A stretch of DNA of 41,900 nt, taken from positions 1 through 41,900 of the forward strand of contig JAOZIF010000165.1 in the NCBI GenBank assembly GCA_026014495.1. The letters are read 5' to 3'. The stretch is from Candidatus Bathyarchaeum sp. GTDB lineage: Archaea > Thermoproteota > Bathyarchaeia > Bathyarchaeales > Bathyarchaeaceae. Position 1 is the stretch's first letter. Every line of letters starts with the position of its first letter. Below, piece after piece: positions 1,651 through 16,734 of this stretch. Below the pieces are notes generated by a model that worked only from the letters and a program-made list of their open reading frames with translations, did no database searches and was not told the origin of the DNA. Made by a program: the position numbers and the translations under genes.

Positions 1651-2735
1651 TTGCCACCAATTGACTGTATTTCACTGCTTTGAGGTATTCCATCTTCATT
1701 TGTGTCTACCCAATGGAACATGTAATAGCAGTCTGTGTAGGCGTCAAGGTTTTGGGACATAACTTCTTTGAAGTATATTCCTGACGCCCAGGTTCCTTTC
1801 CATCCGACGCCATACATGACCAAAAAAGTGTTGTCGCCTTCCACATCATAAAACACCATTGCAATGAACATGTCTTCACTGTATCCGGAAGACGCAATGA
1901 CTGATAAAGGAAAATCGCAAATAGGTGCGCCTGTTCTGTTTTCAAAACAAAGATAATCCCCGTTCACGGTGAACGTGATAGGCAACAGATTTTTTACTGT
2001 TTCATAATAGTTTACGACCACGTTAGCAAGCCGTCCTCCAAACAGCGCGATTGTGGAATTGTTTATGGTTGTGGTGTTGATTGCGCCTGAAGGTAGCAGC
2101 CAGTTTTGTTGTGTGCTAAAGCCGTAGTTTTGAGTGTTTGTGCAAAGGTTTCTTAGTATTTCTCCTGATGTGCCGTCGTAAGTTGCTTCTGCCTGATTTT
2201 GGAGGGATGGATTGTTATAAATGAAGTACACTGTGTTAGCTGGGGCATTTAGAATCTGTTCGTTGGCAACTTCACTTAAACTGAGGTTACACTCTTTACA
2301 TTCTATTAAAATGTTAAAACTAAAGCTTGTTACGTCTTTGATTTTGGGAGAAACAGCCAACTCTAGTTGTATATGTTCTACTTGATTTGTGTATATGGGG
2401 TACCCCGTGTAGTCCCATGACAGCATCATGTTTTGTTGTGCATCTAGGGGCAACCAGTTTTGGGTCATAAGCTTTAGTACTACAGAATTGTTGCCTTCAT
2501 TTCGCACGTAGAAGTCATAATATTGTGTTGCCCCTGCGAGCAAGTTTCCCCAGTCTACTTGGTATACTACTTTTTCGCAGGTTGGGTCTGAATAAATTTG
2601 TACATTGTTTGATACCTCAACCGCAGAAACACTAAGAACGGGAGTTCTAAGAAACAGTAAATTAATCTGAACAAACGCAAACAGCGATACGCTAAGCAGC
2701 AAAATCGAGGCATACGATTTGTTGCGCTGCAACAT
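1647..2735 (-). CDS. Secreted/surface protein: N-terminal DWG/WDY domain plus S-layer-C-like domain
   Basis: Hydrophobic signal peptide; domain shared with 32460-33029; C-terminal ALFGGRLANVVV...YGVGWKGTWA resembles S-layer C-terminal domains; several N-x-S/T sequons. Confidence 0.7.
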   Translation of the reverse strand: MLQRNKSYASILLLSVSLFAFVQINLLFLRTPVLSVSAVEVSNNVQIYSDPTCEKVVYQVDWGNLLAGATQYYDFYVRNEGNNSVVLKLMTQNWLPLDAQQNMMLSWDYTGYPIYTNQVEHIQLELAVSPKIKDVTSFSFNILIECKECNLSLSEVANEQILNAPANTVYFIYNNPSLQNQAEATYDGTSGEILRNLCTNTQNYGFSTQQNWLLPSGAINTTTINNSTIALFGGRLANVVVNYYETVKNLLPITFTVNGDYLCFENRTGAPICDFPLSVIASSGYSEDMFIAMVFYDVEGDNTFLVMYGVGWKGTWASGIYFKEVMSQNLDAYTDCYYMFHWVDTNEDGIPQSSEIQSIGGN

Positions 2736-2870
2736 TTTTCACCCATATTTTAACCTTTTAATCATAACAAGAAGTTAAATTTTGGGGTATATAGACGGTA
2801 CAAGTACCTCAAATAAGTCCAGAGATTGAAACCTCACAAAACCCAGCAACAACAAAACACAAACCCGCCA

Positions 2871-2920
2871 GCATATTAGGAGACTAATATAGGTACATTG
2901 TTAAAAACAACCTTTTTTCA
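2871..2920 (+). repeat. Dispersed hairpin repeat A, copy 1
   Basis: GCATATTAGGAGACTAATATAGGTACATTGTTAAAAAC; core TATTAG-GAGA-CTAATA. Confidence 0.8.
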
Positions 2921-3158
2921 AAAAAAAAAACAAGAAAGAACACGCCTGCTCTTCAATTCTGTTTTCTTTGCTTTTGTCGGCAGCAATGGTGACTGTAATC
3001 TGTAAACAAGGCTGTCTAATCACTCAAGAATCTCAAAACGTAAAAAAACGCCAAAAAGTGCCAAGTTTAGACTGTTCTGCTTATTTATACGCGTTCAAAA
3101 AATCCATACAAAATCATTATATTACTCTTGCTTATCCTTAAGTGAAAACGTAACTTCG

Positions 3159-3911
3159 GTGATGAAACAAATGAAAACCATCAACATTGCCATGATAGGT
3201 GTTAGCGCTGCACTTTATGCTGTAGTAGGCATCTTAACAAACATGGGACTTGTAACTCCCGTTGTGGGCGTAGTAAAATTTTGGCCAGCAGTCATAATCC
3301 CCGGAATTTTTGCTGTGCTTTTTGGTCCTTGGGTAGGCGGAATTGGTGCAGCAATCGGAATCTTCGTTAGTGACATGGTTCAACCTGGACACGGAATAGC
3401 TCTTTTAGCGCTCACTGTTGGGTCAACCTCAAATTTTGCTGGGTTTTATCTAGTTGGTTTGATTTCAAGAAAGAAGATGAAGTGGCGTGACATACTTATC
3501 CTATTAGCTGTTGGTAGTGTGGCGTTAACTGGAATGAGTGCTTACCTGTTCTTAATTGAACAGTTAACTCTAGAGGTTTTAGCCATTTTCTTGGGAGTTA
3601 TCTTCGCTTCAGATGTCCTAGTTGTTGGATTTGGGTTATGGAAACCTGAATGGAAAACCTATGGTTTAGCATCTGTTGTTGGACTTCTTGTTGGAAGCGC
3701 AATAATCGGTTTTGGTCTTTTGGCCTACAGCCAAATTCTTCCATTACCCCTAACAACTGGATATGAACGCAACGCACCAATATACGCAAGCTTATTCTGG
3801 ATGCTTTGGACATTTGCTACCGAAATTCCATTCCTTGTAACAATTGTTCCACCTGTTGTAAAAATATGCTACCGTGCATTCCCTTTCTTAGCACCTCAAG
3901 ATAAACCATAA
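3159..3911 (+). CDS. ECF transporter S component
   Basis: N-terminal AALYAV motif, LFGPWVGGIGAAIG, about 7 TM segments; stop overlaps the next ATG (TAATG). Confidence 0.75.
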   Translation: MMKQMKTINIAMIGVSAALYAVVGILTNMGLVTPVVGVVKFWPAVIIPGIFAVLFGPWVGGIGAAIGIFVSDMVQPGHGIALLALTVGSTSNFAGFYLVGLISRKKMKWRDILILLAVGSVALTGMSAYLFLIEQLTLEVLAIFLGVIFASDVLVVGFGLWKPEWKTYGLASVVGLLVGSAIIGFGLLAYSQILPLPLTTGYERNAPIYASLFWMLWTFATEIPFLVTIVPPVVKICYRAFPFLAPQDKP

Positions 3912-4858
3912 TGGAGAAAACTGACATGCTCAATCTAGCAAGAGCCTTTAGCCCTGCTGGCATCTCTAGCTTTTTTGAGATATGTGACCAAACCGCAAAT
4001 GGAAAACTGATTGCAGACCCCGAGCAGGTTGGTGCTCGTGGGGGCGGTTTTTCTCCAGACAAAGGCGTTTTAACAGAGGTTGTTGTGGCTGAGGCTAAAG
4101 AAAAACAGGTTCAAGTGTTCATCAACGGGAAATCTTGCCCTGAAGCTGAAACAACAAAATCAGTTGTTAACGCCCTTTTGAAACATGTTTCAGAAACATA
4201 CAATGTCACCGTAAACCATCACGTGGAGGTTCCTGTTGGTGCTGGTTTTGGCTCTAGTGCAGCAGGCGCCCTAAGTGCTGCTTTGGCTCTAAGTAAAGCG
4301 TTGAGGCTGAATTTCACATACAATCAATTAGGCAGAGTAGCTCATGTTGCTGAAGTAAAATCCAAAACGGGTTTAGGAACAGTTGGTCCACTACTATTTG
4401 GAGGCTGCGGATTAACAATCAAGCCTGGAGCACCCGGATTAGCTCAGTTAGACCGCATTCCTGTTTCTTCTGACCACAGACTAGTCATTGGCACATTTAG
4501 ACCATATCCTACAAAAGAAATACTTTCTTTTCCAGAACAAAGAGAAAGAATTAACTACTGGGGACAAAAAACTCTCAAACGTATCCTTGCAGACCCATCT
4601 TTGGAGAACTTTATGGATGCTTGCAAAACATTTTCCTTGGAGACGGGTTTTGCTACGAGCCGCGTCAAAAAGTTGATGGAACTGTCCGAGAACGCGGGGG
4701 CTGTTGGTGCTGCACAGAACATGTTGGGGGAAGCTGTTCATGCCTTGGTTACCGTAGACAACTTGGAATCTGTTCATGAATCCTTCAAAAAGTTATTACC
4801 AAAAGAAAAGATTATAATCGCAAACCTTGACTTTCAAGGCGCACGCATAGTCGGGTGA
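3911..4858 (+). CDS. pok: Pantoate kinase (GHMP family)
   Basis: PAGISSFF N-terminus, GHMP motif PVGAGFGSSAAG, GLGTV, QNMLGEAV; adjacent to coaD. Confidence 0.85.
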   Translation: MEKTDMLNLARAFSPAGISSFFEICDQTANGKLIADPEQVGARGGGFSPDKGVLTEVVVAEAKEKQVQVFINGKSCPEAETTKSVVNALLKHVSETYNVTVNHHVEVPVGAGFGSSAAGALSAALALSKALRLNFTYNQLGRVAHVAEVKSKTGLGTVGPLLFGGCGLTIKPGAPGLAQLDRIPVSSDHRLVIGTFRPYPTKEILSFPEQRERINYWGQKTLKRILADPSLENFMDACKTFSLETGFATSRVKKLMELSENAGAVGAAQNMLGEAVHALVTVDNLESVHESFKKLLPKEKIIIANLDFQGARIVG

Positions 4859-4867
4859 TAATGTATC

Positions 4868-5335
4868 GTGGAACGAATGTTTAAGACCGTGGCTGTTGGA
4901 GGAACCTTTGACCTATTTCACAATGGTCATTTAGCCCTGTTGCTTAAAGCATTCGAGGTTGGTAACTATGTTCTTATTGGTTTGTGCTCAGATGACTTTG
5001 TCAAGTCAAGGAAGCCTCACAGTATAGCGTCCTATGCCCAGCGTCTTGAAGACCTAAAAGAGTTCTTGAAAAAAAACGGGCTTTTGGAACGAGCAGAAAT
5101 TACGCCCTTAACTGATGCTTACGGAGTCACATTGTCAGATACACGAATCGATGCCATTGTTGTAAGTGAAGAAACAGAGCCTCGTGCTTATGAAATCAAC
5201 AAAAAACGGAAAAGTTTGGGCTTATCATCCTTGCCCATTGTAACTGTCAAGATGGTTTTGTCTGAAGACCATTACCCAATCTCGTCTACGCGTATCTGGT
5301 TTGAAGAGATTGACAGAGAAGGACACTTGCTCTAA
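4868..5335 (+). CDS. coaD: Phosphopantetheine adenylyltransferase (archaeal/eukaryal type)
   Basis: VGGTFDLFHNGH (HxGH), IVVSEET, ISSTRI. Confidence 0.9.
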   Translation: MERMFKTVAVGGTFDLFHNGHLALLLKAFEVGNYVLIGLCSDDFVKSRKPHSIASYAQRLEDLKEFLKKNGLLERAEITPLTDAYGVTLSDTRIDAIVVSEETEPRAYEINKKRKSLGLSSLPIVTVKMVLSEDHYPISSTRIWFEEIDREGHLL

Positions 5336-5395
5336 CTTTAGCGACTGTTTTAAGCTCCTTTGTACACAGTTTATGTCAAAGACTGATGTGATGCA

Positions 5396-6511
5396 GTGAA
5401 AAGAACAGGGGTTACAAACCTTCCACTCCATTACGGTAAAGCGCCAAGATGGCTTGTTTTTAGAATGCAAAAACTAGCCAAAGAAATGGTGACCATAATG
5501 GTGGACGAGTATGGCGTGGACATGTTCTTGCGGCGCGTTTCTGATCCCTTGTGGTTTCAGGCTTTGGGTTGCGTTTTGGGTTACGATTGGCATTCCTCTG
5601 GTGTGACTACTGTTTTAACGGGGGTTCTAAAGATCGCAGTAAACTCAACAGAGGTTGGTTTAACTGTTTGTGGCGGAAAAGGAAAGACCTCCCGTAAAAC
5701 TCCTGCAGAAATTGACCTTCTGGGCGAAAAATATGGCTTCTCCTCAAACAAACTTGATGGGTTATTATATGCTAGTAAAATGAGCGCCAAAGTCGACACA
5801 ACTGCCGTTCAAGCAGGTTATCCCCTTTATCATCATGCCTTTTTTGTCACCGAACATGGAGAATGGGCTGTAGTTCAGCAAGGACTAAACACCGAGAACC
5901 GCTCAGCACGGAGATACCATTGGCTGTCTGAGAACGTTAAAGATTTTGTTGTTGAACCGCACGATGCCGTAGTTGGAGACATAAAACATGATGTTGTGTT
6001 AGACATGACTGCACAGGCAAGTGAAGGCTGCAGAAAAACCTCTACTGACATCATCAACGAGAACCCAAAAAAGTTGAGAAAAACTCTGTTTTCTATTCGT
6101 CCCACAAATCAAAAATCTTTGCAGGAGTGGATTCCATCGCCTCTGGAAAAAAATTATGCGGTCGATGCTTTTTCTTTACCACGTAACCTTGATTGGAAAG
6201 CAGTTAAACGAGCATACGATTTTCAGCCCAAAAATTACGAAGAATTACTGGGTATCAAAGGCGTAGGTCCTGCAACTGTCCGTGCTTTAGCTTTGGTTTC
6301 CGAGTTGGTTCACGGCGAGAAGCCATGCTGGGATGACCCTATCAAATACAGTTTTTGTGTGGGTGGAAAAGATGGGGTTCCTTATCCTGTGGACAGGGCA
6401 ACTTATGATGAAACGATTGAAATTTTGGAGAATGCTGTGAAGCAGGCTAAGGTTGGTGGTAAGGAGAAACTTAATGCAGTGAAACGGCTTCGTGTTCTTG
6501 CTGCTAGGTGA
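5396..6511 (+). CDS. DUF763 domain-containing protein
   Basis: LPLHYGKAP, YDWHSSGVTT, KVDTTAVQAGY, HhH-like GIKGVGPATVRAL, GGKDGVPYPV. Confidence 0.85.
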   Translation: MKRTGVTNLPLHYGKAPRWLVFRMQKLAKEMVTIMVDEYGVDMFLRRVSDPLWFQALGCVLGYDWHSSGVTTVLTGVLKIAVNSTEVGLTVCGGKGKTSRKTPAEIDLLGEKYGFSSNKLDGLLYASKMSAKVDTTAVQAGYPLYHHAFFVTEHGEWAVVQQGLNTENRSARRYHWLSENVKDFVVEPHDAVVGDIKHDVVLDMTAQASEGCRKTSTDIINENPKKLRKTLFSIRPTNQKSLQEWIPSPLEKNYAVDAFSLPRNLDWKAVKRAYDFQPKNYEELLGIKGVGPATVRALALVSELVHGEKPCWDDPIKYSFCVGGKDGVPYPVDRATYDETIEILENAVKQAKVGGKEKLNAVKRLRVLAAR

Positions 6512-6595
6512 TGTTAACTGTTTTTTGGGATTGTTTATGTTTTAATTCAATTTTAACATGAATGGTTAAAAACTTCTTATATCTTAAGTCTTGTA

Positions 6596-6844
6596 TTGCA
6601 ATATGATGTAAGTGTGCCAACAATGCCGAAAAAAGCTCATATCACAGTGAACTTGTTGCCCGAAGCATCAAAATCAACAACAACTCAAATCAAAGGCAGA
6701 ATACGAAACAATGCAAAAATCCCCTTATGCAAAGAAATAGAGGCCATAACAATAGAAGATATTGACGCATCCTATGAGAACTTGAAAAAACACGGCATTT
6801 CCAGCAACGTAGCACGAAACCTCATGGATTTGTACACCGAGTAA
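6596..6844 (+). CDS. Small hypothetical protein
   Basis: 82-aa ORF filling an intergenic gap; start could be ATG 6623. Confidence 0.5.
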   Translation: MQYDVSVPTMPKKAHITVNLLPEASKSTTTQIKGRIRNNAKIPLCKEIEAITIEDIDASYENLKKHGISSNVARNLMDLYTE

Positions 6845-6916
6845 CAAAAAACATTGCCAAACAGTGTAGCACCCAAAAATCTGAAACCCTAAACTTGAAT
6901 CACTAACTTTCGTAAG

Positions 6917-7462
6917 TTACGATATTTTTTCGCGCACTTGTGTGGTCACATCCAATTCAGCAAACATCTCCCTTTTCGCTTTACATATTGGACAAACATA
7001 AGGTGGGTCTTCGCGGAAACATACATAGCCGCATTGTTTGCAGTACCACAATTTTGTTTGTATTTCAGGCGTTTTCTTTATTGCTGTTTTTGCACTTTCG
7101 GCTGTTTGTTCAGTGGAAATTGTGTATGCTCTGCCTTGTTTTTCTAGGGGTCTTCTTTCTGGAATGGGTTTTGCAGACTTTTTTTTGTCATAAATCTCTT
7201 TTGTGACGTATAACCCGCAGTAACATTGTCCATAATCGTTTACATCGGGGTCTCTGTAGTCACATGGGCAGATTATATCTCTGTCCAGTTCCAGCTTTCC
7301 TGAAGCTAATCTACATGGGCACGAAGGGTAGCCATAGCGTTGTTCGTTTTTGTGCAGTCCTTCAAGCAGGTCTTTGAGAAGCTCTTGGTCGGATGCTAGA
7401 TAATATCCGTTGGTTTTTGCGTCATTTTCTGCTCGTTTTCTTGTGTTTTCTATTGTTGTCAA
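6917..7462 (-). CDS. Ferredoxin:thioredoxin/disulfide reductase catalytic subunit fused to a rubredoxin-like domain
   Basis: CPC, CPC and CYC motifs, followed by WYCKQCGY...PYVCPICKA. Confidence 0.9.
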   Translation of the reverse strand: MTTIENTRKRAENDAKTNGYYLASDQELLKDLLEGLHKNEQRYGYPSCPCRLASGKLELDRDIICPCDYRDPDVNDYGQCYCGLYVTKEIYDKKKSAKPIPERRPLEKQGRAYTISTEQTAESAKTAIKKTPEIQTKLWYCKQCGYVCFREDPPYVCPICKAKREMFAELDVTTQVREKIS

Positions 7463-9766: not shown

Positions 9767-9821
9767 TTTTTCAGAAAAAGCTATTTTTCAACAATGTTCT
9801 GCTATTAGTTTTCTAATATGC
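9767..9821 (-). repeat. Dispersed hairpin repeat A, copy 2
   Basis: Minus strand GCATATTAGAAAACTAATAGCAGAACATTGTTGAAAAATAGCTTTTTCTGAAAAA, starting about 10 nt after the EamA stop. Confidence 0.8.
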
Positions 9822-10839: not shown

Positions 10840-10965
10840 ATGTTGGGCCTGTTAGTTTTTGTAGTGTCTTTCCTTTGTCTTTTCATTGGAACTATACTGT
10901 TTCCCAGCATGCCGCCTGGGCAACTACTATGTGACGTTTTCGGAAACTCGATACTGTTAAGTTAA
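10840..10965 (+). pseudogene. 5' fragment of a small membrane-protein gene truncated by the transposon left end
   Basis: ATG 10840: MLGLLVFVVSFLCLFIGTILFPSMPPGQLLCDVFGN, running into the left TIR, where it stops (TAA 10963-10965). Confidence 0.5.
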
Positions 10966-10972
10966 GTTACCT
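10950..10972 (+). repeat. Left terminal inverted repeat
   Basis: GATACTGTTAAGTTAAGTTACCT; starts like IS6-family ends (IS26 GGCACTGTT). Confidence 0.9.
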
Positions 10973-10984
10973 AAAAAACTAGTT

Positions 10985-12187
10985 TCAAGTCAGTGTTTTT
11001 TGGCAGGTTCCACTTTTGAATCTCTTGATTCTCTGTATGTGAGTCTTTTCAACATACTTCTTTTCAGCTAAATATTCAGGTAAATCCATGTGTTTTATTA
11101 CACCTCTAAGATTTAGTGCTTCCCAAGCCAACTGTTCATTATTAATTAGCGCCTCACACCGTTGTAGCTTGGACTTGGACGAGAACGAATCCAAAAACTT
11201 TTGCCACGAAATACACGAATTGTCTTTTGGATACATGTCAGCTATTCTTTCAGTACCAACAACTCTATAATAACCATAGTCATTACGGTTAAAAAGACGC
11301 AATTTTCTTTCTTCAGTCTCAGGGGTTGGACCTAAACCAATTCCACCAACATCAAATTTTGGACGTTTATGCTTTTTTCCCAATCCATCAAAACCAAACC
11401 CGAAAGAAAAAATGTTTTTTGAAGTCACAGCTTCCCTTTTTTTGGATAACCGACCTGCACTTACATTATAAGCGTAAAGAAATGTGTTATCCAAAACTCT
11501 TTCTTGAACTAATAATTTGAAAACATCGAGGAGGTCAGCCTCCATTGTGATGGGGTTCCTTGCAGCGAAATCATAATAAAAAGCGTTAATTTCGTTCTTT
11601 AGATAGAATAAAATTAATTCATTTGTGTACTGGTATGGTAGTTTTGGTATCGCCCCCATAACAGGTTTACCATTATACCTCCGTAGATATTCCAAAGTAG
11701 CAGAAATAAATTTGAGATATTTCTGGAATTTTGCATCAGAATTTATCCCATCAGTAATTAAGGGAATGTTTGGTATTGGTACGATACTTGAATTGGCATG
11801 TGCTCTATTTAGAATAAACTGCCAAATAGTATCGGATGGATACCTTTGTATAATGCATTCAAAAATACAAATATCAAACTCATGTTGTGAGCTATTATTT
11901 GATTTAGGCTTTTGTGCGCGTATTCTTCTTTCAAAAGCTTGTTTTACGGTCATATCCTTAACGAGCTTATTGAGCGGTCTGTTTTTGTTACTTATTTCAC
12001 AATAAATTTCGTTAAGCCCTCGTGTGCCTGAGGCTACATTTTCATTGCTGTTAATGAGTTTGTTATTATATGCCACAATAGGTGTTTTTATGGAAAAATC
12101 ACTAGCAATACGAAGACTTTTAGTTGAGTATAATGTTTCATCGTTTTTGTCTTTTTCAAGCAGTTTAACTTCTAGTCTAGTCATCAT
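10985..12187 (-). CDS. Hypothetical protein, probable tRNA-guanine transglycosylase (TGT)-like TIM barrel
   Basis: N-terminal SIKTPIVAY resembles TGT IETP; C-terminal LINNEQLAWEALNLRGVIK resembles TGT HNL...IREAI; no DSGG or CxCxxC motif. Confidence 0.5.
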   Translation of the reverse strand: MMTRLEVKLLEKDKNDETLYSTKSLRIASDFSIKTPIVAYNNKLINSNENVASGTRGLNEIYCEISNKNRPLNKLVKDMTVKQAFERRIRAQKPKSNNSSQHEFDICIFECIIQRYPSDTIWQFILNRAHANSSIVPIPNIPLITDGINSDAKFQKYLKFISATLEYLRRYNGKPVMGAIPKLPYQYTNELILFYLKNEINAFYYDFAARNPITMEADLLDVFKLLVQERVLDNTFLYAYNVSAGRLSKKREAVTSKNIFSFGFGFDGLGKKHKRPKFDVGGIGLGPTPETEERKLRLFNRNDYGYYRVVGTERIADMYPKDNSCISWQKFLDSFSSKSKLQRCEALINNEQLAWEALNLRGVIKHMDLPEYLAEKKYVEKTHIQRIKRFKSGTCQKTLT

Positions 12188-12197
12188 TTGCCCCTAT

Positions 12198-12680
12198 TTA
12201 TTTTGAACATCTGAATGTTGATTTGTTAAGTTTATTCAAAAGCTTTTCCTTGATTAATTGGTCTATTATGCCCAAATGATTCATTAGATTCAATAAACCT
12301 TCAGTGCCTGTTTTCTTTAATCCTAGTTTGTCTGCTACTCTTCTTCCTGCACCTTCATCAATCACACATTCAAAAGGTTGATTTTGTTTTTTTAACTCTA
12401 AAGCATACTGTAATACTTCAACTTCACCATAGTCGAGCATTGGATAAAGTTCTTTAAATGTATCAAATTCTTTTTTCGATACTTGTTTAGTAATAATCCA
12501 TTTTTCATCTATCGCTTTAGCGAGTCTAGATTTTCCCGGTTCTTTTTTTACCTCAAATGCAACACCATCAGTTACAATAAGTGAATAACCAATCAAAGTA
12601 AGGGCATACAAGTACTCCCCATCATCCATCTCCGTCATAAAACCAATAATCGTTGAGGCATCCAAAATAAGCGAAGTCAT
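12198..12680 (-). CDS. PIN-domain toxin (DUF3368/COG2405-like)
   Basis: LILDAS, VAFE, LDYGEVE, VIDEGAGRRVADKLGLKKTGTEGLL; acidic PIN residues retained. Confidence 0.8.
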   Translation of the reverse strand: MTSLILDASTIIGFMTEMDDGEYLYALTLIGYSLIVTDGVAFEVKKEPGKSRLAKAIDEKWIITKQVSKKEFDTFKELYPMLDYGEVEVLQYALELKKQNQPFECVIDEGAGRRVADKLGLKKTGTEGLLNLMNHLGIIDQLIKEKLLNKLNKSTFRCSK

Positions 12681-12686
12681 TCCACA

Positions 12687-13271
12687 TCACTCAGCGAAAA
12701 CGGAGACACCCTTTGATTGTAATAACGCGATTACATCTTCTTGATATAACCCAGAAATTTCAGCAGCTTTCCCAAGACTTATTTTCTTTTTTTTGAACAA
12801 ATTAACAGCGACTTCTTGTCTCTTTGTTTCTATTCTCTTGAACTCTAACGAGTCATCTCGCATGTCTGGGTATGAGTAATAAATGAACCCTAACAACTCA
12901 TCTTTTGTCAAGTCATTCAGAAACAACTTCATTTCTGAAATCGAGTTCATTTTAGAAGTAAATTCTATCTCCAATTTTTTTGCGATTTTTTTCCCATATT
13001 TTGTAAGTTGTTTTTGTTTCGGGTCAACAATCTTTTCTATACGTAGTCTATCAGTCTGCTCATCAGCTAATTCACTATATGGCCCCATAAAATCGGATTC
13101 AAACTCAGCCTCTTCTGCTAAGTCAGGCAATATTTTTGAAATAAGGAACAACTCTTTTTGATACCATAATTTGCCTTTTATAGGTTCCAAATTATTTGCA
13201 GCATAGAGAAGAATGGTTATTTTTTGTGTTAATGATAGGCGTTTCTCTATGTTATTGCTCGTCTTCGACAC
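12687..13271 (-). CDS. Antitoxin-like fusion: SocA/Panacea(DUF4065)-like N-domain plus UPF0175 HTH
   Basis: GKLWYQKELFLI...FESDFMGPYS; C-terminal AVNLFKKKKISLGKAAEISG. Confidence 0.7.
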   Translation of the reverse strand: MSKTSNNIEKRLSLTQKITILLYAANNLEPIKGKLWYQKELFLISKILPDLAEEAEFESDFMGPYSELADEQTDRLRIEKIVDPKQKQLTKYGKKIAKKLEIEFTSKMNSISEMKLFLNDLTKDELLGFIYYSYPDMRDDSLEFKRIETKRQEVAVNLFKKKKISLGKAAEISGLYQEDVIALLQSKGVSVFAE

Positions 13272-13422
13272 TCTCCTCAGTCACAGGTTCAAGCAAGATA
13301 ACCTTAACTTGCTTATGTATCCACGCTTTTGGCAAGTATATCCTTCCCGTCGTACCTGACACGGCAACTCTCCTTTCTAATACTTGATAACCTGAAACTT
13401 TAACTTCCATTTCGGCATTCAT
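13252..13422 (-). CDS. DUF2080-family transposon-associated small protein (AbrB-like), not in ORF track
   Basis: MNAEMEVKVSGYQVLERRVAVSGTTGRIYLPKAWIHKQVKVILLEPVTEESVEDEQ; alternative start 13410; overlaps the start of the antitoxin gene. Confidence 0.8.
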   Translation of the reverse strand: MNAEMEVKVSGYQVLERRVAVSGTTGRIYLPKAWIHKQVKVILLEPVTEESVEDEQ

Positions 13423-13547
13423 AATAATAGCTATATTATAGCTTATTTATATCTTTTTTTAATTATTTTATGGCTATTTTATAGCTAATAAACGTAAGGT
13501 ATATATACTTGGGTATCCTAAAGGATACCTGTAAGAGCGTGAAAGAA
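13423..13547. promoter_or_regulatory. Divergent promoter region with two TATA boxes and three palindromes
   Basis: Minus-strand AAAAAAAG-ATATAAAT at about 13445-13460; plus-strand GTATATATAC at 13499-13508; GCTAT-N3-ATAGC at 13430-13442 and 13473-13485; GGTATCCT-AA-AGGATACC at 13512-13529. Confidence 0.7.
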
Positions 13548-14456
13548 ATGAACTGCAAATATTGTGACTCTGAGAACATAATCAAGAAAGGAGTCAGACA
13601 TAACAAGCAAACTTACAAGTGTAAAGACTGTGGTCACATTTTTGTTGCTAACGGCAAATTTTCAAGAATGCGAAACGACAAGCACATCATAGTTACAGCT
13701 CTTAATCTCTACTATGACGGCTTATCTCTCCGAAAAACACAACGCAACTTAGAACAGATTTTTGGAGAGAAAATATCTCAAGTCACAATATTGAACTGGA
13801 TTAAGAAGTATTCACGACTTGTAAAAGAATACATGATTTCTCAGGTACCACAACTTTCAGGATTATGGCACGAAGATGAAACAGTAATCAAGTGTGAAGG
13901 AAGAAACGTTTGGTTCTGGGAAATGATAGATGAAGATACAAAATTTATGGTTGCTTCTCACCTATCTAACACAAGAACGTTTAATGATACAGTAGCCATC
14001 TTCAAGAAGGGATTTGAGCAGAGCAAGGTTCGACCTAAAGCGGTTTTTGTCGATGGCTGCAACGCTTACTATCGAGCGTTCAACAAAGTGTTCTACACCC
14101 TCCGAAAAGATACTCGCCCAGAGCTAGTGCAAAGAGTTGGAGTAAGAACTAGAGAAACAAACAACATAGTTGAAAGACTGCATGGTACACTTAAAGATAG
14201 AACAAAGCCAATGCGAGGACTCAAGAATTATGAATCCACAAAACTACTGCTTGAAGGATACTCAGTCCACTACAATTGTGTTAGACCGCACCAAAGTCTA
14301 GGCGGTAAAACTCCCGCTCAAGCTACAAGAATGAACGTTCCAAACAATTGGAAAGGCTTAATTGATGAAGCAACGAAACATGAAGCAATTCTATTAGCTA
14401 AAGTGTTCGGTGAAAAAACGGAAGAAAAACAGGGAATAAAGGTGGTCAGTAAATGA
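13548..14456 (+). CDS. IS6-family DDE transposase with N-terminal zinc ribbon
   Basis: CKYC...CKDC, HTH, WHEDET / VFVDG / NNIVER catalytic triad, HYNCVRPHQSLGGKTPA. ATG 13548 is preferred to TTG 13509, which lies just after the TATA box. Confidence 0.9.
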   Translation: MNCKYCDSENIIKKGVRHNKQTYKCKDCGHIFVANGKFSRMRNDKHIIVTALNLYYDGLSLRKTQRNLEQIFGEKISQVTILNWIKKYSRLVKEYMISQVPQLSGLWHEDETVIKCEGRNVWFWEMIDEDTKFMVASHLSNTRTFNDTVAIFKKGFEQSKVRPKAVFVDGCNAYYRAFNKVFYTLRKDTRPELVQRVGVRTRETNNIVERLHGTLKDRTKPMRGLKNYESTKLLLEGYSVHYNCVRPHQSLGGKTPAQATRMNVPNNWKGLIDEATKHEAILLAKVFGEKTEEKQGIKVVSK

Positions 14457-14620
14457 AAAAAATCTTAGTAGCTCTACCAAAGGGTGTAATTGACATTTTA
14501 GACAAAGAAGTTGTTGGCAAACTAGGCGAAGGTTATAGTGACACATTACGCACAATTATTATGAATTGGTTAGGCGAACAGGGTTACTTATCAAAAGGTG
14601 GAAAAAGTGAAAAAATCTAA
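14453..14620 (+). CDS. Ribbon-helix-helix (CopG-like) protein, 55 aa, not in ORF track
   Basis: MKKILVALPKGVIDILDKEVVGKLGEGYSDTLRTIIMNWL...; ATGA overlap with the transposase stop. Confidence 0.75.
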   Translation: MKKILVALPKGVIDILDKEVVGKLGEGYSDTLRTIIMNWLGEQGYLSKGGKSEKI

Positions 14621-14759
14621 AGTTGACAGAGAACCAACCGAAGAAATAGACCTTTTAGATGATATGCTCTCAAGTCTAGTTGACTTGCTTATTGAGAAAG
14701 GCGTTATTACAGAAGAAGAATATGAGAAGCGAATTAAGCAACGAGTTAAAATAAAATAA
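14607..14759 (+). CDS. Small acidic protein with SHOCT-like motif, 50 aa, not in ORF track
   Basis: GTG start after GGTGG RBS; LVDLLIEKGVITEEEYEKRI. Confidence 0.65.
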   Translation: MKKSKVDREPTEEIDLLDDMLSSLVDLLIEKGVITEEEYEKRIKQRVKIK

Positions 14760-14764
14760 ATTTT

Positions 14765-14959
14765 CTAATTTTTCTCTTTTCCCAAATATATTAACAACAT
14801 TGCCAATAACCCAAGAATAGTTATTTGAATTGAATAACTCAGCACTTGGTAGTTAACGCAAAAATAAATGAACAAAAGTAAGTCAATAAAGGCGATAATT
14901 AACCCAGCTGTGAATAATATCCAATTCATAGTAACCAATAATTTTGAAGCAAAAGACAT
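14765..14959 (-). CDS. Small two-TM membrane protein (passenger gene)
   Basis: 64 aa with two hydrophobic segments; starts 16 bp inside the right TIR. Confidence 0.55.
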   Translation of the reverse strand: MSFASKLLVTMNWILFTAGLIIAFIDLLLFIYFCVNYQVLSYSIQITILGLLAMLLIYLGKEKN

Positions 14960-14975
14960 ATCTTAAATTTTCGGC

Positions 14976-14998
14976 AGGTAACTTAACTTAACAGTATC
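14976..14998 (-). repeat. Right terminal inverted repeat
   Basis: AGGTAACTTAACTTAACAGTATC, the exact reverse complement of 10950-10972. Confidence 0.9.
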
Positions 14999-15208
14999 GT
15001 AGTGGACGATAAAATATATGCAATTGGAGGCCAACAAGGTACTGCTCAAACCCCAACGAAATACTGCAACACAAACGAAGTTTACACTCCAACGGGTTAC
15101 ATTCCAGAGCTTTCTTCTTGGTTAGCTCTTCCCTTGGTTATAACAGGTGTATTGGTTGCTGTTTTAGTTAAGAAAAAGTTACAAAAAACTGCTTGTACAA
15201 GAGATTAA
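14999..15208 (+). pseudogene. 3' remnant of a Kelch-repeat surface protein with a PEF-CTERM-like tail
   Basis: VVDDKIYAIGG...NTNEVYTP (Kelch repeat), IPEL, TM segment, KKK; begins exactly at the TIR junction. Confidence 0.75.
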
Positions 15209-15218
15209 TAAAAAAACA

Positions 15219-15256
15219 TTTTTTCAACAATGTTCTGCTATTAGTCTCCTAATATG
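15219..15256 (-). repeat. Dispersed hairpin repeat A, copy 3
   Basis: Minus strand CATATTAGGAGACTAATAGCAGAACATTGTTGAAAAAA. Confidence 0.8.
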
Positions 15257-15306
15257 ATTTTGTCTGTTGGGCAGGGATGCTCTGTTACTCTTGTGGTTTA
15301 TGTCGT

Positions 15307-16674: not shown

Positions 16675-16726
16675 TTTCTGAAAAAACCTAGTTTTCAACA
16701 ATATTCTGCTATTAGTCTCCTAATAG
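16675..16726 (-). repeat. Dispersed hairpin repeat A, copy 4
   Basis: Minus strand CTATTAGGAGACTAATAGCAGAATATTGTTGAAAACTAGGTTTTTTCAGAAA, 8 nt after the HDAC stop. Confidence 0.8.
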
Positions 16727-16734
16727 GAGTGGAA

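Follow-up and report, generated by a model that had tools for sequence, protein, structure and literature searches.

Pairs formed by a COG2886 (UPF0175) protein and a PIN-domain protein have been predicted to represent type II toxin-antitoxin (TA) systems (Makarova 2009, PMC2701414), while the three-component systems described for the COG2405 group of PIN proteins make use of a helix-turn-helix (HTH) protein and a DUF955 protease (Matelska 2017, PMC5499597). As for the antitoxic partners, Panacea domains bind and neutralise many unrelated toxins (PMC8832971), and the DUF4065 (Panacea) proteins are reported to be homologous to the C-terminal domain of DarG (PMC13621843). The fold of the tRNA-guanine transglycosylases (TGTs) is also represented in conflict systems, namely in Cap10 of the type IV cyclic-oligonucleotide-based antiphage signalling system (CBASS; bioRxiv 10.1101/2025.04.06.647259), beside DpdA, and TGT homologues occur in systems related to bacteriophage exclusion (BREX; PMC12839542). 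The locus analysed here lies in a stretch of 41,900 nucleotides (the window) of Candidatus Bathyarchaeum sp., corresponding to positions 1 to 41,900 of the contig JAOZIF010000165.1 (assembly GCA_026014495.1), where an IS6-family transposon harbors three adjacent genes referred to as A (antitoxin), T (toxin) and X. The cassette looks like an undescribed three-part TA or defence module. What is already known of it is the predicted A-T pair, whereas what is new is the family of the third component, X, added to a tripartite TA-like module. The A-T half is one of the predicted COG2886-PIN TA pairs (PMC2701414) and belongs to the COG2405 group (PMC5499597), and it is the only part of the trio matching something known.

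The gene A (12687-13271, minus strand) starts with a GTG codon and encodes a 194-amino-acid (aa) protein composed of a Panacea/DarG-C-terminal-like domain and a UPF0175 HTH; the gene T (12198-12680, minus strand) encodes a predicted toxin of 160 aa, a PIN nuclease of the DUF3368/COG2405 type; the gene X (10985-12187, minus strand) encodes a TGT-fold TIM barrel of 400 aa belonging to an uncharacterised archaeal family, even though a second ATG at 12184 may be its true start. An earlier note on this DNA, made from the sequence alone, had described four tightly packed minus-strand genes reaching the terminal repeat of the transposon, and the coordinates confirm this picture: the upstream DUF2080 gene and A overlap by 20 bp (13252-13271), the following gaps are 6 bp (12681-12686) and 10 bp (12188-12197) long, and the 3' end of X lies 12 bp inside the left terminal repeat. 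The cassette is also AT-richer than its flanks, as the same note had stated, with a GC content of 0.33-0.35 across 11.5-13.5 kb vs about 0.39-0.44.

The comparison with other genomes revealed that A, T and X form a conserved, horizontally mobile archaeal three-gene unit. X was retrieved in 38 species loci of the GTDB set, 35 of which are informative, i.e., have enough flanking sequence, and it adjoins A in all of the latter (35/35); the toxin is a DUF3368 PIN in 30 of them and a ParE-like protein in three, and in the remaining two it is either missing (locus L027) or lost to the contig end (L049). X adjoins A also in the seven intact matches (7/7) from a sample of 401 genomes of the window's own phylum, and it lies beside A and a toxin in every metagenome or metagenome-assembled genome (MAG) contig context examined; the trio is present on one IMG/VR contig as well. 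Three gene orders have been disclosed, that is A-T-X (17 loci), T and A divergent from X (18 loci) and X-A-T (two loci), and in many of the A-T-X loci the stop codon of T overlaps the start codon of X. The co-occurrence of the 400-aa homologues with the TA pair, which the earlier note had proposed to check, was thus found across Archaea, and the mobile three-component unit that it had postulated agrees with the invariable X-A adjacency in different gene arrangements. In one case, a Methanoperedens MAG (L020), two distinct trios are located within 7 kb (at 514-2705 and 4819-7128), one of them being X-A-PIN, with a PIN of the PF01850 type and a short A of 163 aa, and the other the usual A-T-X.

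The three genes have also diverged together, since their pairwise distances co-vary (r = 0.85 for X-A, 0.80 for X-T and 0.86 for A-T; Mantel p at most 0.001), shared ancestry contributing to these figures. In the phylogenetic tree of X, the co-directional form groups together and the phyla are mixed: for instance, Archaeoglobus joins Thermococci and Wolframiiraptor, and Methanosarcinales join Woesearchaeota. The distribution of X is patchy, with 10 of the 401 genomes of the phylum and none of the six genomes of the same genus or family harboring it; the former count derives from a loose first search that misses distant members, several of which were later found beside A-like genes. The taxa possessing the cassette comprise Bathyarchaeia, ammonia oxidisers, methanogens, methane oxidisers, DPANN, Asgard, Thermoplasmatota and Thermococci.

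This linkage bears on one of the possible explanations of X, according to which it would be a non-toxic cargo enzyme modifying nucleic acids or metabolites, and A-T an addiction module stabilising both the cargo and the transposon. TA pairs often stabilise cargo located nearby, and X is under strong purifying selection (the ratio of nonsynonymous to synonymous substitution rates, dN/dS, is 0.045 vs the nearest relative, 80% identical), with a conserved putative active site; A-T alone, moreover, matches a known type of predicted TA pair (PMC2701414; PADLOC PDC-S70). However, a loose relation would not hold X and A together through three gene orders, many phyla and the replacement of the toxin; the distance correlation of X with A is as high as that of A with T (0.85 vs 0.86), the stop codon of T and the start codon of X overlap in many loci, and the prediction of an A-X complex, described below, passes weakly vs null controls. 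The cargo explanation is therefore regarded as decidedly unlikely.

The UPF0175 HTH of A (Pfam PF03683, COG2886) occupies residues 149-192 (41.9 bits vs a cut-off of 27.9; E 8.3e-11) and is matched by all 29 homologues of A. The N-terminal part is helical, and the AlphaFold2 model of the protein, which has a mean predicted local distance difference test (pLDDT) of 94.1, most closely matches in fold the DarT-inhibiting C-terminal domain of DarG (7yk3_D, Z 10.8, 147 aligned residues, model residues 12-165), followed by a row at Z 7.4 which, like most of those below it, is a winged-helix domain. The same structure is also the best match found by Foldseek, where it is not significant (E 0.076), and a profile of the N-terminal domain touches 7yk3_B at E 0.038. 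The SocA_Panacea model (PF13274, DUF4065) has no match in the window A at E up to 1 and matches four of the 29 homologues, all below threshold (best E 0.0062). The helical domain has in common with the Panacea/DarG C-terminal domain the pattern W/L-QK-hhF/Y ... GP-Y/V-S. On the whole, the models support the idea that the N-terminal domain (about residues 12-145) is Panacea/DarG-C-terminal-like by fold, not by the Pfam model, and hence that A is the dual-domain antitoxin indicated by the earlier note.

Concerning T, its match to DUF3368 (PF11848) reaches 18.8 bits, below the Pfam cut-off of 27.3, whereas precomputed annotation tables assign PF11848 to the homologues at other loci. The acidic residues E43, E86 and D108 are invariant in 22 homologues, D7 is present, and the profile of T finds VapC6 (2lcq) at E 0.0012. 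T also matches PDLC05071, the PIN model of the PADLOC candidate system PDC-S70, at 6.8e-18, and residues 145-193 of A match PDLC05075/05076 weakly (1.3e-4 and 7.1e-4); these component models were matched singly, and the matching genes lie side by side. The PADLOC search proposed in the earlier note, in which the absence of a hit was to support novelty, was not blank for the TA half and gave no match for X. The combination of A, T and X does not correspond to any named system in PADLOC, Pfam or NCBIfam, and no account of the trio turned up in the open-access literature searched, most subscription papers lying outside that scope; in this respect, the earlier note had judged correctly.

X has no Pfam or NCBIfam match at E up to 1, including PF01702, and no PADLOC match. 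Its family comprises 33 clusters by a word-indexed search, all named "hypothetical", and about 260 representatives at 50% identity clustering when the search is exhaustive. The AlphaFold2 model, built with 26 homologues, displays alternating strands and helices (pLDDT 83.8; predicted template modelling score, pTM, 0.87), and the best 50 PDB matches found by Foldseek (E about 1e-6, TM about 0.53) are TGT enzymes without exception. In the VIA structure search, the archaeal enzyme ArcTGT (1iq8_A) was matched at Z 21.7 (325 aligned residues, root-mean-square deviation 4.5), bacterial TGT (3unt_A) at Z 21.1, QTRT2 at Z 19.6, Cap10, the fourth-best structural match, at Z 15.9, and DpdA at Z 14.6, vs Z at most 11.7 for the non-TGT TIM barrels; a DUF5591+TGT row of the ESM Atlas matches X at TM 0.67. 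The model also carries, on the (beta/alpha)8 barrel, the TGT-specific N-terminal hairpin and the C-terminal helical part. The alignment of 144 members of the X family with 18 ArcTGT sequences, performed with hhalign in local mode, is collinear (1-396 against 1-350; P 6.6e-4, probability 27%) and lines up the N-terminal "..G..i.TP", the "SDI", the "hLF(D/N)" and the C-terminal "N-x-E/L ... I-K" helix motifs. A sequence search of the PDB with the X profile gave only noise and no TGT. The structural comparisons indicate that X, as modelled, is a divergent (beta/alpha)8 barrel of the TGT superfamily, so that its description as TGT-like in the earlier note holds by fold only.

The active site, on the other hand, differs from that of the known enzymes. 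No Cys that could form the CxCxxC...H zinc site is invariant, or conserved in at least 80% of the sequences, in either 26 close or 144 diverse members, and the PCsCpvC stretch of ArcTGT is aligned by hhalign with YPxD-SCI of X. The catalytic nucleophile of TGT is the Asp found within a D-h-F-D motif (D280 in Z. mobilis, D249 in P. horikoshii); in the same alignment, which is of low confidence, the DLFD of ArcTGT corresponds to R297-L-F-N300 of X. N300 is invariant among the close relatives of X and is conserved in under 80% of the wide family. X therefore appears to be devoid of the canonical Asp nucleophile, whose position seems to be occupied by an Asn, and the position of the guanine-recognising Asp is not conserved either in the hhalign alignment of the family. 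Conversely, the polar residues E60, D206, N241, D267 and H273 are kept in at least 92% of the 144 diverse members, and the larger set including also R297 and N349 is conserved in 86-100% of them. X is basic (isoelectric point, pI, 9.5). Longer fused forms of the protein were not found, which is weak evidence, given that long proteins crowd the candidate list; a tblastn search with X against the PLSDB plasmids and the GenBank phages, both collections being mostly bacterial, gave no match.

In the light of these features, it can be evaluated whether X is a working guanine/7-deazaguanine transglycosylase of tRNA or DNA, the cassette being then a modification-based system, as the earlier note had surmised in assigning to X an activity on tRNA or DNA guanines. 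The best structural matches (ArcTGT, TGT and QTRT2, Z 19.6-21.7; DpdA, 14.6) speak for such an enzyme, and so do four motifs in common, namely the N-terminal ..TP, the SDI, the hLF(D/N) and the N-x-(E/L) of the C-terminal helix; moreover, the host genome encodes its own canonical ArcTGT, so that preQ0 is presumably available in the host. Nevertheless, PF01702 remains unmatched even at E 1, the Cys residues of the zinc site and the base-recognising Asp are not conserved, the DLFD motif aligns with RLFN, whose Asn is itself not conserved across the wider family, and no QueC, QueD, QueE or DpdB/C-like genes were found in the cassettes examined. An activity on tRNA or DNA guanines is thus not supported, and a transglycosylase role for X is considered very improbable.

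The toxin of the cassette is exchangeable (DUF3368 PIN, PF01850 PIN or ParE-like), while A and X remain constant. In three Bathyarchaeota/Thaumarchaeota loci (L046:4496-4822(-), L047:4565-4879(-) and L050:4542-4853(-)), a ParE_toxin (PF05016, above cut-off) is present in place of the PIN, with X still divergent and adjoining A, and the A proteins beside the ParE-like toxins bear an extra C-terminal tail of about 35 aa. As to the interaction between A and X, a complex prediction gave an ipSAE of 0.49 vs 0.00 for the best control; at least 61% of the contacts agree between the runs, and the pLDDT of the partners is at least 86. The mark used for such predictions is reached by 58 of 80 solved complexes and by two of 110 mismatched pairs. 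The complex modelling proposed in the earlier note has thus yielded a result graded as weak support, which weakly suggests that A binds X.

Some information can also be drawn from distant relatives of X. Two of them (P0161 and P0177, 22-23% identity) are found without A-T and are convergent with a gene for an unrelated, conserved zinc-ribbon protein of 152-160 aa, which is 46% identical between two loci and does not belong to any known family. These convergent pairs lie at L126:529-2197 and L129:4001-5696, and the latter is located between an AriA/OLD-like ATPase and an LmuB-like SMC ATPase, a setting of the defence-island type. It is possible that the distant X and the zinc-ribbon protein represent a separate two-gene system.

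Combining these observations, the cassette can be interpreted as a mobile TA module that resembles those of type II and is built around a composite hub antitoxin, carried here as cargo of an IS6-family transposon. According to this scheme, A would act as both hub antitoxin and autoregulator: its UPF0175 end, with the tail where needed, would pair with the exchangeable toxin, here the PIN RNase T, and would probably bind an operator, palindromes being located in the spacer 13423-13547, and its N-terminal Panacea/DarG-C-terminal-like domain would bind the constant X. The latter would be a basic, enzyme-like descendant of the TGT superfamily, whose loss of the zinc site and of the canonical Asp nucleophile suggests that it performs another chemistry. 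Should the element be lost, or stress or infection set in, A would disappear or be titrated, and the release of T and X would bring growth to a halt. The tentatively favoured explanation, which is given somewhat less than an even chance, sees in X a second effector that A holds in an inactive state, since the Panacea and DarG C-terminal domains bind toxins, X resembles a conserved, basic nucleic-acid enzyme, and its distant relatives form two-gene systems of their own. The analysis shows how the genes are arranged, which domains and folds they encode, that the three are strictly linked and have diverged together, that the toxins are exchanged and that the distribution is patchy. The binding of X by A, a toxic action of T and of X, the trigger and the role of the module, whether transposon addiction or antiviral defence, are inferred, and so is the abortive infection or element maintenance proposed in the earlier note; for the window cassette, the stabilisation of the element is at least as likely as virus defence, since the cassette is the cargo of a transposon in an ordinary chromosomal neighbourhood.

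Several observations weigh against X being a second effector, and some of them are better accommodated if X is a sensor, a trigger or a stabiliser rather than a toxin. It is known that in the toxin-antitoxin-chaperone (TAC) systems the third component is a SecB-like chaperone; in a similar logic, X would bind the N-terminal domain of A and control the release of the toxin by modifying, sequestering or stabilising A in response to a ligand or substrate (nucleobase, nucleic acid or viral product), or else it would act like the protein-modifying TGT-fold Cap10. X with A and no toxin was not seen apart from the decaying locus L027, whereas A-T pairs without X exist; given this one-sidedness, X looks more like an accessory dependent on the TA core than like an independent second toxin. 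In L027, an intact X lies beside a split A and the toxin is gone, a state that a strongly toxic X would hardly allow, errors in the MAG being possible. Furthermore, the N-terminal domain of A is present in 56 of the 401 genomes, and in many cases X is missing and the neighbour is just a PIN or an unrelated gene, so that its specificity for X is ruled out; that it has other partners is indicated by the locus L099 (333-1998), where an A-type protein of 209 aa, with neither X nor PIN, lies directly upstream of an IetA-like AAA ATPase (PADLOC IetA, 9.1e-85). As for the complex prediction, only seven of the 80 solved complexes, and both of the mismatched pairs that pass, fall at scores of 0.60 or below; weak passes of this kind are wrong in most cases, except where the pairing was likely beforehand. 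Lastly, at two positions occupied by Asp in 86% and 90%, respectively, of the 144 members, the window X and the three sequences nearest to it carry Ser134 and Asn258, which may represent a clade-specific change of the putative active site, and the location of the window copy within a defence island was ruled out, the surrounding genes being ordinary.

The constancy of A-X with a toxin swapped among three unrelated families is what is usually seen for a sensor core equipped with interchangeable effectors, and a sensing X explains better than an effector both this swapping and the finding that X always comes with a toxin, although A-T pairs can do without X. The retention of X in L027 with a broken A and no toxin also speaks for a sensor. 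The weakly supported A-X complex (0.49 vs 0.00 for the control) is compatible with it too, and the TGT-fold Cap10, fourth-best match of X (Z 15.9), targets the N-terminus of a protein in type IV CBASS (bioRxiv 10.1101/2025.04.06.647259). However, what Panacea-type domains are known for is the neutralisation of toxins and not the reception of signals (PMC8832971), the distant X relatives, paired with a zinc-ribbon protein in the absence of any PIN, suggest that the effector can be X itself, and its basic nature (pI 9.5) resembles that of a nucleic-acid enzyme. A sensor, trigger or stabiliser role is accordingly deemed possible though rather unlikely, and the more specific proposal that X is a new TGT branch that senses nucleobases, nucleic acids or viral products, or that acts on A in a Cap10-like manner, is looked upon as quite unlikely.

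Turning to the element that carries the cassette, the IS6-family transposon spans 4,051 bp (10949-14999) and is bounded by perfect 24-nt inverted repeats, the left one at 10949-10972 and the right one at 14976-14999; a perfect inverted pair of 24-mers in 10.5 kb is far beyond chance. The transposase gene (13509-14456, plus strand) encodes an IS6-family DDE transposase with an N-terminal zinc ribbon (NF033587 transpos_IS6, 142 bits vs a cut-off of 125), which also matches DDE_Tnp_IS240 of Pfam at 2.7e-21. The listed open reading frame (ORF) begins at a TTG codon (13509); the ATG at 13548 (MNCKYC...), which would give a protein of 302 aa, seems the likelier start, since the product aligns from residue 1 with the 302-aa homologue of locus L011 and the palindrome stays upstream. 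Between the divergent transposase and DUF2080 genes lies a spacer (13423-13547) resembling a divergent AT-rich control region, with TATA-like stretches and palindromes: on reading the letters, GCTAT-N3-ATAGC occurs twice (13430-13442 and 13473-13485), and GGTATCC-N4-GGATACC is found at 13512-13529, directly after the stretch TATATATA. The spacer would serve as promoter, and its palindromes are likely operators for HTH proteins or small regulators.

The DUF2080 gene (13252-13422, minus strand) encodes a transposase-associated protein of 56 aa (NCBIfam NF033496, 47.3 bits vs a cut-off of 22). The earlier note had included it among the members of the system together with the A/PIN/TGT-like trio; while the trio stood, DUF2080 was dropped as a member of the module, being absent from all the other X loci, and its product could not be aligned with the 51-aa ORF found at the matching place in L011. 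On these grounds, DUF2080 belongs with the transposase, i.e., to the transposon and not to the conserved trio. Downstream of the transposase gene and coupled to its stop codon, two overlapping micro-ORFs of 55 and 53 aa are located (14453-14759, plus strand); the first has no Pfam match and the second has only weak SHOCT-like matches (0.0026, under the cut-off), and in L011 ORFs of 55 and 50 aa occupy the place of these micro-ORFs. The right arm also contains a 64-aa ORF (14765-14959, minus strand) taken from the ORF list, with no Pfam match.

L011, a locus of a Bathyarchaeota MAG, deserves attention also because its transposase (2689-3597), lying beside another trio, is 71% identical over 302 aa to that of the window. 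The two X proteins, in turn, share 42% identity only, and the disparity between the identities of transposases and cargoes suggests either an exchange of cargo between related IS6-type elements or the repeated capture of diverged cassettes. No convincing pair of terminal repeats was found at the transposase-plus-trio locus of L011, and the terminal-repeat sequence of the window is absent from every other locus retrieved.

The element is present in a single copy in the 2.19-Mb, 196-contig, 93%-complete assembly, and its neighbours encode an EamA transporter, a Kelch fragment, TrmB-type regulators and a deacetylase. An 8-bp target duplication is absent around it, the flanks reading CGGAAACT and TAGTGGAC. 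Short ORFs border the element (10840-10965 and 15002-15208, the latter with a Kelch motif fragment), which, along with the missing duplication, would be consistent with an insertion followed by a rearrangement or an adjacent deletion. A 48-nt direct repeat was also observed in three intergenic copies, 85-88% identical (9774-9821, 15210-15257 and 16681-16728), the first of which lies about 1.1 kb from the left end of the transposon and the second about 210 bp beyond its right end; it may be a promoter element, a remnant of a miniature inverted-repeat transposable element (MITE) or something else.

Archaeal TA and defence systems are far less explored than the bacterial ones, and the cassette combines a TA pair of the predicted PIN type with a so far unnamed family having the fold of nucleobase-exchanging enzymes and a different active site. 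If X were an effector, as tentatively favoured here, it would embody a new toxin chemistry; if it were a sensor, it would illustrate the coupling of a TA core to a signal. In the event that the sensing or Cap10-like proposal were true, the trio would be a switch triggered by a ligand or by infection and firing several plug-in toxins, that is, a new principle of TA triggering widespread in Archaea. In addition, the exchangeable toxin and the composite antitoxin are a natural example of modular antitoxin design, and the transposon copy shows the cassette travelling as cargo of an insertion sequence.

When the cassette is compared with the described systems, the closest likeness is with the UPF0175-DUF3368 pairs, in which the two families are likewise adjacent and co-oriented, with the HTH protein upstream of the PIN, the acidic residues of the PIN are kept, and the distribution is patchy and mobile. 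Unlike in those pairs, A is here about 195 aa long and carries an extra Panacea/DarG-C-terminal-like domain of 145 aa, a 400-aa TGT-fold gene is always attached, and the toxin can be replaced by a ParE-like protein or a PF01850 PIN, with A and X staying. The COG2405 three-component systems differ in that their additional members are an HTH protein and a DUF955 protease, not X (PMC5499597). With the PanA/Panacea proteins and the C-terminal domain of DarG, A has in common the fold (best match at Z 10.8), the variety of the partner genes and, as in many PanA proteins, the fusion of a helical domain with an HTH; the HTH of A, however, is C-terminal and of the UPF0175 type, and the Pfam SocA_Panacea model is not reached. 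The supplementary files of the Panacea paper (PMC8832971), as far as these were accessible, contain no UPF0175, DUF3368 or transglycosylase term.

As regards the TGT superfamily (TGT, ArcTGT, QTRT2, DpdA and Cap10), X shares with it the barrel fold and a full-length, collinear profile alignment, but it lacks sequence-level membership, the zinc site, the conserved Asp nucleophile and nearby genes for the synthesis of 7-deazaguanine, and it possesses its own conserved polar set (E60, D206, N241, D267 and H273); moreover, none of DpdA, Cap10 and the BREX-related TGT homologues shows the A-T-X context. Finally, the tripartite TA systems (TAC, paaR-paaA-parE and PIN-HTH-DUF955) resemble the cassette in having a TA core with an obligatory third gene, in the possibility that an extra segment of the antitoxin ties it to the third protein, and in accommodating varied toxin families in one framework. 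No relation of sequence or fold with them was found, the likeness being of logic only, and the third protein of the cassette is a TGT-fold barrel instead of a SecB-like chaperone, a repressor or a protease.

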